From: Escherichia phage UFV-AREG1
Sequence record: KX009778
Direction: 5' to 3' (one strand)
DNA length: 64,000 bases
The translations under genes were made by a program, and so were the position numbers. Shown piece by piece: positions 11,448 through 53,790 of the stretch (its first letter is position 1; each line of letters starts with the position of its first letter). The notes under the pieces were generated by a model. It was given only the letters and a program-made list of their open reading frames with translations, did not search any database and was not told where the DNA came from.

Positions 11448-12050
11448 TTATAGATTAAATCCTTCAAAATCAAGAGTATAGATAGTGTATGTTGAATACT
11501 TTTTATACTCATATCTATCTGCAATTCTAAATACACTTCCAGCTGGTATCATTACTTCTTGTTCATCTGAAACTAATTCCATATTACGATAACGATGGCT
11601 ATCCGGAAACTTAAAGTTTGGATTGTATTCTTTACAGCGTAGAGCTTTTATAGCATACTCCTGGAAATTGAACACCATAGGAGCTTTGAATTCAAAAATA
11701 ACTTGTGTGTTATACTCTAAACCTGAAGCAAAATGCAGAGCTATATTTTTATCATATGAAGCTGATACGACTTTATCAAATGTAATAATATCAATTCCTT
11801 GATTTAACACCTGCTTAGTCTCAGCTGGAACACCTCTCCAAAGAGGTTTATCGTTTGGAACCAAACGAGATTTGATTATTTCATTTAACCAAGTATGGTC
11901 ATCTGGTTTGTTGGTAATACAATGAATTAAAAGTTCAATTTCAGATAAATTAAACCCTTCAGAAAGTAATTCTTCACGAATAGAAGCACGCACCGATGCA
12001 TCCATTGATTTGATTTTAAAATCTTTTAATTGCATTGCTGAATATTTCAT
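11448..12050 (-). CDS. modA: ADP-ribosyltransferase ModA
   Basis: 200 aa as T4 ModA; ART-like R / S-x-S / E elements (LWRGVP, SASYD, QEVMIPAG); synteny. Confidence 0.75.
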   Translation of the reverse strand: MKYSAMQLKDFKIKSMDASVRASIREELLSEGFNLSEIELLIHCITNKPDDHTWLNEIIKSRLVPNDKPLWRGVPAETKQVLNQGIDIITFDKVVSASYDKNIALHFASGLEYNTQVIFEFKAPMVFNFQEYAIKALRCKEYNPNFKFPDSHRYRNMELVSDEQEVMIPAGSVFRIADRYEYKKYSTYTIYTLDFEGFNL

Positions 12051-12682
12051 TCAACTACCTCAATATCATACACTTTAAATGTTCCAAATGAATCATGTAA
12101 TTTTTCTTTTGAAATAGAAGTTATTTTATACTTTCCAATTGGAATCATCCATTCTTGTTCACGCACAATCATCATTAAGTTATCAGTACGTTCTGAATCT
12201 AATCCATCAGTATCTTCATATGTATACTTAAACTCAGTATTAGGAGAAGAAAGTATAATATCGCTGATATGGTCAGAGTAATTAAAAGCTTTATCAGTTT
12301 TTAAGCGAAGTACTATTTCAGTGAAATATTCAGCATAAGAAAAAGAACACGCTGTATGCAAACTAGTAGTAAATGAATCTACTCTGTTCGTTGAAAACAC
12401 TTCTCCAACTTGTAAATCTTTAATGAGTTCTTTTGTCGATTTTGATATACCACGATATAGCTGATAAGGCGATTTAGTTAAATGTTTTTTAACGATTTTA
12501 TTCAACTGCTGATGAAGAGCTTCATTCTTTTTGGCTTCCATACATTGCCAAAGAACTGACTGTTCAAAGTCAGTAAATTTTTCACAGACCTTTTTATACA
12601 TATCATATTGAAAATCAACGCTTTCAGCTTTTATAGATAACTGTTCAACATCTACAAGATTAATAATCATGATAGCCTCCAT
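12047..12682 (-). CDS. modB: ADP-ribosyltransferase ModB
   Basis: 211 aa; ART-like elements (LYRGIS, STN..TTS, EQEWMIPIG); adjacent to modA; early promoter 12697-12726. Confidence 0.7.
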   Translation of the reverse strand: MEAIMIINLVDVEQLSIKAESVDFQYDMYKKVCEKFTDFEQSVLWQCMEAKKNEALHQQLNKIVKKHLTKSPYQLYRGISKSTKELIKDLQVGEVFSTNRVDSFTTSLHTACSFSYAEYFTEIVLRLKTDKAFNYSDHISDIILSSPNTEFKYTYEDTDGLDSERTDNLMMIVREQEWMIPIGKYKITSISKEKLHDSFGTFKVYDIEVVE

Positions 12683-51717: not shown

Positions 51718-52203
51718 TTATTCCATTTCTACTATGTGCATGTTCTTTTTGCTATCAAAATATATGTTTTTAACTATTAACTCAGAATTAATTGGCAGTA
51801 AAAACTCTCTTTCATAATCTACCATGCAAAGATTATCATAAAGCTTGTTAAGCTTATCATCGTCAGTTTGACCAGATTCTTCAATTGCGATTAAATTTTC
51901 TAAAATGTCAATCATAGCAGTCGAATAGTCGAAAACGTTTGCATTTTTTAACACTACTAAAACATTAGTCATATAGCGTTCTGCCGCAAACGTTTCAGCT
52001 ATATGAGACTCACTGCTAAAGGAAGTTATTCTTTTAAATTTGATTCTCCTATTAACTTCAAACTTATAAGATAGCACTTCCTCTATTGTAAGTCCTCTAA
52101 AAAGTGTGTCTTTAATCTCAAGTTTGTCTTTAATGTAATCATTAACACGCTTATGATTAAAATCATTAATTTTGTTGCCAAGGCATTGCATTAAAATATG
52201 CAT
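51718..52203 (-). CDS. hypothetical protein
   Basis: 161-aa ORF flanked by stem-loop/promoter cassettes. Confidence 0.5.
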   Translation of the reverse strand: MHILMQCLGNKINDFNHKRVNDYIKDKLEIKDTLFRGLTIEEVLSYKFEVNRRIKFKRITSFSSESHIAETFAAERYMTNVLVVLKNANVFDYSTAMIDILENLIAIEESGQTDDDKLNKLYDNLCMVDYEREFLLPINSELIVKNIYFDSKKNMHIVEME

Positions 52204-52249: not shown

Positions 52250-52279
52250 ATTATAATATGCTTTGCGGCAGAAGTAAAC
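52250..52279 (-). promoter_or_regulatory. early promoter (cassette)
   Basis: minus strand GTTTAC-18-TATAAT, stem-loop 52308-52325 just upstream. Confidence 0.5.
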
Positions 52280-52307
52280 AACTTTGTGGCGTCATTTTAA
52301 ACAAAAA

Positions 52308-52325
52308 GGGAGCCCGAAGGCTCCC
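52308..52325 (-). terminator. stem-loop with UUCG-type tetraloop (cassette)
   Basis: GGGAGCC-CGAA-GGCTCCC directly after NTase-fold gene stop. Confidence 0.55.
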
Positions 52326-52327
52326 TA

Positions 52328-53341
52328 TCATTTATAATAACTTCGGTGGTTTTCAAGATAAACCTTCTCAAGGAAATCATCCCAAAAACCCATGTCTACT
52401 TTTTGCTGCATACCGTTCTTAGAAGCTTCAATGGATGCTGCTTCTACTTGATCGACCACATCTTCCAAAAACTCTTGAACAGTTTTAAATGGATGTTTAC
52501 CCAGCTTCACGTCGAGAATAAACGGAGCATCTTGAAGTGGATAGACTAAGTCACCAGTTTTGTAAATTTCCAATAGTTGGAGTCCACCACGACAAGCATG
52601 ACTCAATGCTTTCCAGTCAATACCTTCATTCGCTTCAGCCTTACGAGCACGTTCACCGTATTCGGCATCAAGTTTATTCAAAGACTGCTTAAGCTCAATA
52701 AGAGAAAGTGTTGTCTGATATTTACGACCCAACACAGTGTAGAACGTTTGTGGACCGGTTTTCTCATGATTATGGAATACCCATTCACAGAATTCGTTCT
52801 CTGGAAGACGATGCTTAATATCTTCAACTTTAGTGCGACGTTGCTTAATGGAACCGTCTTCTTGGTAATCAACCCATTGCTCAGGGATTTGATTAACTAC
52901 TTTCAATACATCACGCAATGCGGCCAAACGAGAACCCTTAACACCATATTTAGAAGCTTGCTTGCGGACATATCCTAAATAGGATTTCATGTTAGTCGTA
53001 TAAAAACGAGAACGATTGTCTTGAATAAACTTCCATACATCAGGCAAATCAGATTTAACTACCAGTTCAGGTGGAGTGTGAAGCATATCCAATGCTACAG
53101 TTTCACCATCTGCTGCTAATTTAAAGAAATATTTAAGACTGTATAGTTCATGGTCAATATCATCTTTAGTGTTTTTAGATGATGTGTTGTTCGTGTTTTT
53201 ACTCATATGCTCTTTAACATTTCCGATAAGAATATCACGAGCAGGAGGAACAAAGATTTCTTTAAAATCTACATCAGATTCTGGAGTAGAAGTTCCATAA
53301 AGATGACTACCAAAATAGCTTTTCATTACTGTTTTCATCAT
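52328..53341 (-). CDS. nucleotidyltransferase-fold protein (Pol-beta-like NTase superfamily)
   Basis: 337 aa; N-terminal GS-x(9)-DxD signature (YFGSHLYGTSTPESDVDF) typical of minimal NTase fold; function unknown. Confidence 0.55.
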   Translation of the reverse strand: MMKTVMKSYFGSHLYGTSTPESDVDFKEIFVPPARDILIGNVKEHMSKNTNNTSSKNTKDDIDHELYSLKYFFKLAADGETVALDMLHTPPELVVKSDLPDVWKFIQDNRSRFYTTNMKSYLGYVRKQASKYGVKGSRLAALRDVLKVVNQIPEQWVDYQEDGSIKQRRTKVEDIKHRLPENEFCEWVFHNHEKTGPQTFYTVLGRKYQTTLSLIELKQSLNKLDAEYGERARKAEANEGIDWKALSHACRGGLQLLEIYKTGDLVYPLQDAPFILDVKLGKHPFKTVQEFLEDVVDQVEAASIEASKNGMQQKVDMGFWDDFLEKVYLENHRSYYK

Positions 53342-53790
53342 TCAGCCTTATATTCAATAACAGGACACACTTTAGCTTTACGGGCTTTTAAAAATTCGAC
53401 GATAATAGATTTCTTAGGTTGAATAGGAGGTAAACCTTTATACGCCCTATCAATATTTTCTACATGTAAAGCATAATCCTTTTTCCATTTATAATCTTTA
53501 TATTTTTCACGCAGTTGTGCAGGAATAACAAATGAACCAATAATAAGTAAAACAAGCAAAATGGCAAGTATAAATGCTGATGGAATAAGAGTCCATAAAC
53601 TACCAAAAATAAGCCAACGTTGTAAACTTTCTGCGCAGATAATAGTTAGACCTGCGAGTATAGTACATCCGAAAAAAAGAAACGAAAAATGTAGGAATAA
53701 CAATAGACCAAAAATACGCGCATAGTGTCTTAGGTCGTTTCCATTCATCATTAAACATTTTGAATAATTTATAGTGCCAAGAGCTTTCAT
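53338..53790 (-). CDS. membrane protein
   Basis: 150 aa, multiple hydrophobic helices. Confidence 0.45.
   Translation of the reverse strand: MKALGTINYSKCLMMNGNDLRHYARIFGLLLFLHFSFLFFGCTILAGLTIICAESLQRWLIFGSLWTLIPSAFILAILLVLLIIGSFVIPAQLREKYKDYKWKKDYALHVENIDRAYKGLPPIQPKKSIIVEFLKARKAKVCPVIEYKAE

Follow-up and report, generated by a model that had tools for sequence, protein, structure and literature searches.

The protein of 337 residues encoded at 52328..53341 on the minus strand of the window, the whole stretch of 64,000 nucleotides analysed here from Escherichia phage UFV-AREG1 (sequence record KX009778), is, judged by its sequence, the orthologue of T4 NrdC.11. It very probably belongs to the RlaP family of nucleotidyltransferases, and is predicted with the same high confidence to be an active enzyme of that family. 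By analogy with the RlaP members that have been studied, it seems rather likely to be an RNA 3'-end nucleotidyltransferase of the RlaP type that acts in RNA repair. A narrower task, the rebuilding of RloC-trimmed anticodon loops before ligation by Pnk and Rnl1, is put forward more tentatively. The gene, its nucleotidyltransferase nature and its RlaP membership can already be found in RefSeq, Pfam and the literature, and the additions made here are modest: a domain map, the RNA-repair linkage of the clade, the tandem occurrence of long and short RlaPs, and the D61N substitution in the T4 reference.

The open reading frame is a real gene and not a chance ORF. Its translation begins MMKTVMKSYFGSHLYGTSTPESDVDF and includes KDDIDHE; within it, FGSHLYGTSTPESDVDF carries G11-S12 and D23-x-D25, while KDDIDHE carries D61 and D63. 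Both the reading frame and the nucleotidyltransferase signature described in the earlier note are therefore borne out, as a product of 337 aa on the minus strand with the pattern GS...DxD...D. Identity to T4 NrdC.11 (NP_049709.1, product name 'nucleotidyltransferase' in RefSeq) extends over 329 of 336 residues (98%). The first ATG shares bases with the upstream gene's stop codon (GAATGATG), and the start annotated in T4 corresponds to the second ATG. The features of the gene and of its immediate downstream region are as follows.

52328..53341, minus strand: coding sequence, nrdC.11 orthologue, 337 aa (ORF listing, PF10127 and PHROG 388 matches, comparison with T4)
53338, minus strand: alternative start at the second ATG, the T4-annotated start, giving 336 aa
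53309-53311, 53306-53308 and 53273-53275, minus strand: codons of G11, S12 and D23, respectively (codon check)
53267-53269, 53153-53155 and 52328-52330, minus strand: codons of D25 and D63 and the stop codon, respectively (codon check)
52298..52326, minus strand: intrinsic terminator, AGGGAGCC-UUCG-GGCUCCCU and then UUUUUGUUU (hairpin search, folding, comparison with T4 and phage HY01)

The window is from a phage of the T4-like type (Tequatrovirus). A segment of 2.8 kb surrounding nrdC.11 shares 97% identity with Escherichia phage W143 and has matches in 722 phage records, and the order of genes (tk, rI, ..., nrdC.11, nrdC.10) is that of T4. A tblastn search detected nrdC.11 homologues in 1516 phage records, from phages of Escherichia, Klebsiella, Aeromonas, Acinetobacter and Vibrio. 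The gene is full length in 1442 of these, and one T4 record among the 1516 is without most of it. In phage records the homologues are frequently mislabelled 'thioredoxin'. In an exhaustive search of 1.84 billion representatives (50% clustering), 3420 matched at E<=1e-3, of which 830 reached E<=1e-30. The great majority of the matching representatives are 300-350 aa long and are aligned end to end, which implies that the 337-aa architecture is a conserved unit. Matches to COG3541 were recorded as early as 2006 (PMC1524935).

Read from the sequence, the nrdC.11 transcript ends at the gene's own terminator. The hairpin (52326..52307, minus strand) begins one base past the stop codon and has a stem of 8 bp, 6 of them GC pairs, closed by a UUCG loop and followed by TTTTTGTTT. 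Its folding energy is -24.7 kcal/mol (z = -5.9 relative to shuffled sequence), it occurs once in the window against an expectation by chance of 0, and an identical terminator is found downstream of nrdC.11 in T4 and HY01. The description of a dedicated terminator directly after the stop thus holds. Beyond it, at 52278..52250, lies a promoter-like site, TTTACT-17-TATAAT. Because the start of nrdC.11 overlaps the upstream stop, co-transcription with the upstream early genes is suggested.

The assignment to RlaP is drawn from several profile comparisons. The match to PF10127 (RlaP), at 43.7 bits (E 3.5e-11), exceeds the Pfam gathering score of 23; it spans only positions 23-142 of the 249 in the profile and reaches residue 135 of the protein. 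The same profile is matched by 145 of 146 diverse homologues, and PHROG 388, 'nucleotidyltransferase', matches over the full length (7e-137). When aligned with canonical RlaPs by hhalign, residues 1-91 are matched with a probability of 95% (E 3.7e-8), and a jackhmmer search seeded with canonical RlaP recruits the NrdC.11 clade. The profile of the clade itself reaches the neighbouring canonical paralogues at 3.3e-10 and 4.6e-4 only. By these sequence measures, the clade is distant from the characterised RlaP enzymes; in the PF10127 similarity network, 'T4NrdC.11' was placed in cluster 5 and the studied enzymes in cluster 1a (PMC12776372).

The active site is that of a Pol-beta-type nucleotidyltransferase. 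In an alignment of 146 sequences, 34-55% identical to the window protein, G11 and S12 are conserved at 100%, D23 and D25 at 99% and D63 at 97%, and D63 pairs in hhalign with D73, the invariant third Asp of canonical RlaP. The earlier note had held that its reading would fail if the active-site Asp residues were not conserved in homologues; since D23, D25 and D63 are retained in 97-99% of the 146 and D63 aligns with the canonical third Asp, the reading stands. Residues G11, S12, Y132, H248, R251 and P268 are invariant across the alignment. Conservation of at least 90% is also observed in the N-terminal part at Y15, G16, S22, D23, D25, K27, P32, N57, D61, D63, S68, G79, D85 and W103, and further along at Y124, Q128, K131, G136, R138, Y228, G229, R231, A235, D242, W243, K244, A245, A249, K279 and G281. 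At the clade-invariant position D61 the T4 reference allele carries N, whereas the window allele and most relatives have the consensus D61.

The AF2 model of the window protein, built from 131 sequences, has a pLDDT of 88.5 and a pTM of 0.74, and is a nucleotidyltransferase by fold. The domain-level structure prediction proposed earlier as a check finds the expected fold. The protein can be divided into four parts.

52997..53341, minus strand: Pol-beta-type nucleotidyltransferase domain, about residues 1-115 (conservation, hhalign, AF2 secondary structure)
52949..52987, minus strand: first helix of the C-terminal domain, residues 119-131, with conserved Y124, Q128 and K131 (hhalign, secondary structure)
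52634..52948, minus strand: insertion peculiar to the clade, about 100 aa long, residues 132-236 (AF2 against the canonical RlaP model P0492, conservation profile, BFVD)
52331..52633, minus strand: C-terminal helical bundle, residues 237-337, with helices at 243-262, 272-279, 285-308 and 317-331

The first of these carries G11-S12, D23-x-D25 and, as third carboxylate, D63, together with the clade-conserved N57, D61 and D85; a loop at residues 50-60 is modelled with lower confidence by AF2 (mean pLDDT about 63). The nucleotidyltransferase part is not limited to some 60 residues, as had been thought, because the Pfam match runs to residue 135 and the AF2 core to about 115. Nor are the other 270 residues unassigned, as they comprise the rest of the nucleotidyltransferase domain, what is probably the RlaP helical domain and the insertion of about 100 aa. 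A helical structure is predicted for the bundle, but not for residues 155-209, which are beta-rich, with five strands and one short helix in the AF2 model, and poorly conserved in sequence. The insertion runs from the motif KYGxKGSR (131-138) through a helix (138-150) and this beta-rich stretch to a second helix (214-236) ending in YGxRA (228-232). Both motifs are conserved and clade-specific, and they bracket the insertion. In the bundle, the conserved residues are D242-W-K244-A-x-x-H248-A-x-R251, P268 and K279-x-G281, which match by position the canonical motif K-x3-Y-x2-R...PPM...K.

Canonical short RlaPs for comparison came from bacterial loci where their genes directly follow an NrdC.11-type gene, with more added by profile search. 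In these proteins of 254-264 aa, the insertion at 132-236 is missing. The canonical model P0492 (264 aa, pLDDT 91.7) and NrdC.11 correspond element for element across the nucleotidyltransferase domain and the 'HHY' helix, which is represented in NrdC.11 by helix 119-131 with Y124 (hhalign, 3-133 against canonical 26-148). The correspondence resumes at the canonical helix K-x3-Y-x2-R, equivalent to K244-x3-H248-x2-R251, and continues with the PPM loop paired with P268, K207 with K279, and two final long helices; relative to NrdC.11, P0492 has an extra short helix between the Pro loop and the conserved Lys. In these models, NrdC.11 looks like a canonical RlaP minus the N-terminal helix and plus about 100 residues (132-236). 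Viral nucleotidyltransferases of 232-285 aa in BFVD can be aligned with the model, gaps included, across some 330 columns, at target-normalised TM scores of 0.55-0.92. Profile-profile comparison of the C-terminal half with canonical RlaP falls in the same register with non-significant E-values, 0.01-0.02 with 12 sequences and 0.13-0.22 with 108, so homology of the C-terminal domains rests on the order of secondary structure elements, the positions of the motifs and the BFVD alignments, and is likely rather than proven. No RlaP structure was matched by sequence or fold in the copies of the PDB searched: neither the protein nor the clade or canonical profile recovered a relative or a PfRlaP chain in sequence searches, and Foldseek against the PDB gave nothing below E 1e-3.

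The RlaP family was defined by Burroughs and Aravind in 2016, as cited in PMC12776372 and PMC7824862. Its members are predicted to replace, ahead of ligation, the nucleotides that a cleaved RNA has lost (PMC7824862; PMC6514570), and in jumbo phages the distribution of RlaP mirrors that of RNA ligases (PMC7824862). Two Pseudomonas enzymes, PfRlaP and PaRlaP, add 1-2 NMPs onto the 3'-OH of RNA, and not onto DNA or protein (PMC12776372, a preprint of December 2025). The same source describes the characterised RlaPs as preferring Mn2+ and as raising the aminoacylation of repaired tRNA missing one nucleotide. In the crystal structure reported there, the nucleotidyltransferase domain at the N-terminus and the helical domain at the C-terminus form an RNA/NTP cleft, and the last helix packs back onto the nucleotidyltransferase domain.

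The genomic setting of cellular members of the NrdC.11 clade was studied in a sample of 80 bacterial and archaeal loci encoding full-length homologues, 32-54% identical. RtcB, RtcA, Hen1 or Pnkp is encoded within 5 kb at 14 of the 80 loci, and no recognised RNA-repair neighbour lies within 5 kb at the other 66. One locus has the order RtcB-RtcA-long RlaP-short RlaP-Hen1, and another Pnkp-long RlaP-short RlaP. The RNA-repair context that defines RlaP is hence found in the NrdC.11 clade too. A second, short canonical RlaP is encoded nearby at 12 of the 80 loci, in 11 cases immediately downstream on the same strand and in the remaining one on the other strand at a distance of about 4 kb. The insertion of about 100 aa, together with this tandem co-occurrence in one operon, suggests that the long and short proteins are not redundant or functionally equivalent.

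RloC is an anticodon nuclease that excises the wobble base. T4 encodes Pnk and Rnl1, which together repair tRNA-Lys cleaved by PrrC, and this pathway is the original example of counter-defence by RNA repair. In the mechanism proposed for NrdC.11, the N-terminal domain would bind two divalent metals and an NTP through G11-S12, D23, D25 and D63, while the C-terminal helical domain would close the cleft around the 3'-OH end of an RNA. The basic and aromatic residues of this cleft would be K244, H248, R251 and K279, along with those of the insertion motifs KYGxKGSR and YGxRA. The enzyme would then add one or two NMPs to the RNA 3'-OH end without a template. Nucleotides trimmed from cleaved tRNA by host anticodon nucleases, RloC being an example, could be put back in this way, after which the polynucleotide kinase and RNA ligase 1 of the phage would reseal the full-length tRNA.

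The chemistry in this scheme (an RNA 3'-OH acceptor, 1-2 NMPs, a preference for Mn2+) comes from the literature on members of cluster 1a of the sequence similarity network. What was seen here is the identity with T4 NrdC.11, the family membership, the conserved active site, the fold and layout as predicted, and the linkage of cellular homologues to RNA repair; from the two together, we infer the same chemistry for the NrdC.11 clade, a tRNA substrate and a role against RloC. Several observations weigh against the RNA-repair reading: the distance of the clade from the characterised RlaPs, the PF10127 match limited to part of the profile, the non-significant profile-profile comparison of the C-terminal halves, the likely non-equivalence of long and short RlaPs, the phage neighbourhood with neither ligase nor kinase beside nrdC.11, the 66 cellular loci that show no recognised repair gene within 5 kb, the dispensability of the gene in the laboratory, and a best solved-structure match, HalB, that is not an enzyme of RNA repair.

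That the protein is a nucleotidyltransferase of RNA 3' ends but has another target, acting in the repair or completion of the 3'-CCA of phage or host tRNAs or in RNA tailing, is the alternative that survives best, though it is itself unlikely. It shares its chemistry with the preferred explanation, so all of the family evidence applies equally. It is also favoured by the homologue in Vibrio phage 11895-B1, which is the second gene after a CCA-adding tRNA nucleotidyltransferase and has tRNA genes close by, and by the finding that no RNA ligase, kinase or other RNA-repair gene adjoins nrdC.11 in the phage; the neighbourhoods of distant homologues in Vibrio phage D481 and Klebsiella phage KPN8 held nothing informative. 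Canonical RlaPs label full-length tRNAs and rRNAs as well, with little NTP specificity (PMC12776372), but NTP-indiscriminate addition could not faithfully rebuild CCA. Moreover, on a nicked tRNA mimic the characterised enzymes favour the broken 3' end of the anticodon loop over that of the acceptor stem (PMC12776372), and the cellular homologues of the clade are linked to RtcB, Pnkp and Hen1, not to CCA enzymes.

Considerably less probable is the view that the nucleotidyltransferase is joined to a HEPN-like partner domain, in the style of MntA/HepT type VII toxin-antitoxin systems or of KNTase, and nucleotidylylates a protein or a small molecule. Foldseek does list KNTase/ANT(4') at an E-value of about 0.02, and a faint match to MntA (NCBIfam NF047752, E 0.06) is the sole NCBIfam hit; this covers residues 9-26 only and scores a sub-threshold 13.2 bits against a cut-off of 60. 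However, the Rx4-6H motif of HEPN nucleases is absent from the window protein and found in at most 8 of the 146 homologues at any aligned position, the motif conserved in the family being K244-x3-H248-x2-R251, and no Pfam KNTase_C or HEPN match was obtained. An identity as a HEPN RNase was rejected, as Rx4-6H is missing. The context of the family is RNA repair, and the characterised RlaPs left E. coli proteins unlabelled (PMC12776372). Of the HEPN-like partner domain suggested in the earlier note there remains a weak resemblance at the level of fold, a helical bundle attached to a nucleotidyltransferase domain. The observation made in that note is confirmed, and its interpretation partly supported.

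The synthesis of an oligonucleotide or nucleotide signal in the manner of HalB, which a phage might deploy against host immunity as a decoy or counter-signal, is more improbable still. HalB, an oligo-dA synthase, is the best match among solved structures, but identity is 15% and the global TM score only about 0.25-0.39, a likeness to be expected between any two minimal nucleotidyltransferases with a helical C-terminal domain. HalB was not matched in PDB sequence searches, whether the query was the single sequence or the profile, so the likeness is one of fold only. Models in PADLOC-DB 2.0 gave no match at E<=0.1, although this 2023 library may predate Hailong, and no HalA-type channel protein was recognised among the flanking ORFs, the flanks consisting of phage early genes. 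The PF10127 membership and the RNA-repair context in cells argue against this reading as well.

That the protein is catalytically dead, or a structural relic in a variable and dispensable region of the genome, can be set aside as least credible of all, for although nrdC.11 is dispensable in laboratory T4 (PMC9825161), is mostly deleted in one T4 record and has N at D61 in the T4 reference, all the catalytic residues, and some 30 positions besides, show conservation of at least 90% among sequences of 34-55% identity, the gene is full length in 1442 of the 1516 phage records and the window allele keeps the consensus D61. The dispensability in laboratory T4 fits an accessory counter-defence role.

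A more speculative extension of the RNA-repair reading, which we regard as doubtful, is that the long RlaPs of the NrdC.11 type form a subtype with a function of its own, in which the insertion could confer a substrate or nucleotide specificity that canonical RlaP lacks, for example for the trimmed anticodon loop. If this were true, T4 NrdC.11 would be the missing phage antidote to anticodon nucleases that, like RloC, excise the wobble base. NrdC.11 is widespread in T4-like phages and is an obvious candidate for the phage reversal of anticodon nucleases that remove nucleotides. No new kind of system is added by this analysis; rather, the experiment is sharpened, through the catalytic residues D23, D25 and D63, the insertion at 132-236 and the D61 allele, which is safer to assay than the N allele of the T4 reference.

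Among known systems, HalB of Hailong (217 aa; PDB 9dbh and 9dbj) makes oligodeoxyadenylate and works with a partner, HalA, and nothing alike is seen at nrdC.11. Kanamycin nucleotidyltransferase/ANT(4'), LinB, AAD(9) and the MNT-HEPN pairs have no sequence-family match to NrdC.11, and their substrates are small molecules or proteins, whereas that of RlaP is RNA. The CCA-adding enzymes and class II tRNA nucleotidyltransferases resemble the chemistry proposed for NrdC.11, in that they add NMPs to an RNA 3'-OH independently of a template from a Pol-beta-superfamily site. By contrast, their Pfam families are not matched by the window protein, their C-terminal domains differ, and RlaPs add 1-2 nucleotides with little NTP specificity. 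T4 NrdC.11 shares with the window gene its position in the nrdC-tk early region, the nrdC.10 gene that follows and the terminator. Upstream, T4 has the mobD homing endonuclease where the window has an ORF for a 150-aa membrane protein, and downstream the window has an extra gene, for a 161-aa Mod-like ADP-ribosyltransferase, before nrdC.10. With the RlaP family (PF10127), NrdC.11 has in common the active site hG[GS]...DxD...D and, in the predicted structures, a nucleotidyltransferase domain and C-terminal helical domain with matching order of secondary structure. It differs in its place in the similarity network (cluster 5, as against cluster 1a for PfRlaP and PaRlaP, with weak direct sequence similarity), in the insertion of about 100 aa at 132-236 with its beta-rich subdomain and own conserved motifs, in the absence of the canonical N-terminal helix, and in a central motif of K-x3-H-x2-R where canonical enzymes have K-x3-Y-x2-R. 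Finally, the phage gene stands without an adjoining ligase, whereas cellular members of its clade are found in operons with RtcB/RtcA and Pnkp/Hen1.

Among the 80 bacterial and archaeal loci encoding NrdC.11-type homologues, which carry an insertion of about 100 aa and are here termed long RlaP, a short canonical RlaP accompanies the long form in twelve (L037, 3712-9158; L052, 3338-7799; L007, L017, L034, L054, L056, L061, L064, L072, L073 and L080). In 11 of these 12 the short gene lies directly downstream of the long one on the same strand, the exception being L064, where the two genes are on opposite strands, approximately 4 kb apart. At some loci the pair is enclosed within RtcB-RtcA-...-Hen1 or Pnkp operons. 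The sharing of an operon by two RlaP proteins suggests that they have distinct roles. A further neighbourhood is that in Vibrio phage 11895-B1 (locus L083, 2275-5921), where a homologue with 29% identity is found two genes 3' of an interrupted gene for a CCA-adding tRNA nucleotidyltransferase, with tRNA genes less than 5 kb away; this arrangement hints at a tRNA-centred role.

Asp is present at position 61 of the nucleotidyltransferase domain in 119 of 120 cluster representatives of the close relatives, and in the window (codon 53159..53161). The T4 reference protein (NC_000866; locus L002, 11436-12446, minus strand) reads KNTKDNIDHE, with Asn at this clade-invariant residue, and the same record contains an ambiguous base (N) within nrdC.11. 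Laboratory T4 may carry an atypical allele, a point of relevance to anyone assaying its NrdC.11. In another record named Escherichia phage T4 (OL964745.1, 159,752 bp), only residues 299-337 were matched, implying that most of nrdC.11 has been deleted; this loss is in line with PMC9825161, in which the stretch from nrdC.11 to mobD.3 is reported to be removable.

Orthologues in many phage records are wrongly labelled 'thioredoxin', and in one case 'putative HNH homing endonuclease'. Such labels probably derive either from the name nrdC.11 itself or from those of adjacent genes.

Two features flank nrdC.11 in the window:

51718..52203, minus strand: 161-aa ORF, between the nrdC.11 terminator and nrdC.10

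53338..53790, minus strand: 150-aa predicted membrane protein (PHROG 22816/944), upstream of nrdC.11

The 161-aa ORF is preceded by a promoter-like site (52278..52250). Searching Pfam with it gave no match; in PHROG it matches family 832, 'RNA polymerase ADP-ribosylase'. By phmmer it is related to the tandem Mod-type ADP-ribosyltransferases encoded at 12047..12682 (2.9e-14) and 11448..12050 (1.9e-7), to which it adds a third paralogue. It lacks around 40 residues at the N-terminus and retains the R-S-ExE triad (R36, S61, E131-x-E133). In T4 the corresponding position holds no gene. The upstream neighbours differ likewise: in the window, the stop codon of the predicted membrane protein ORF overlaps the nrdC.11 start, whereas in T4 the position immediately upstream is occupied by the HNH homing endonuclease gene mobD (L002, 12430-13209).
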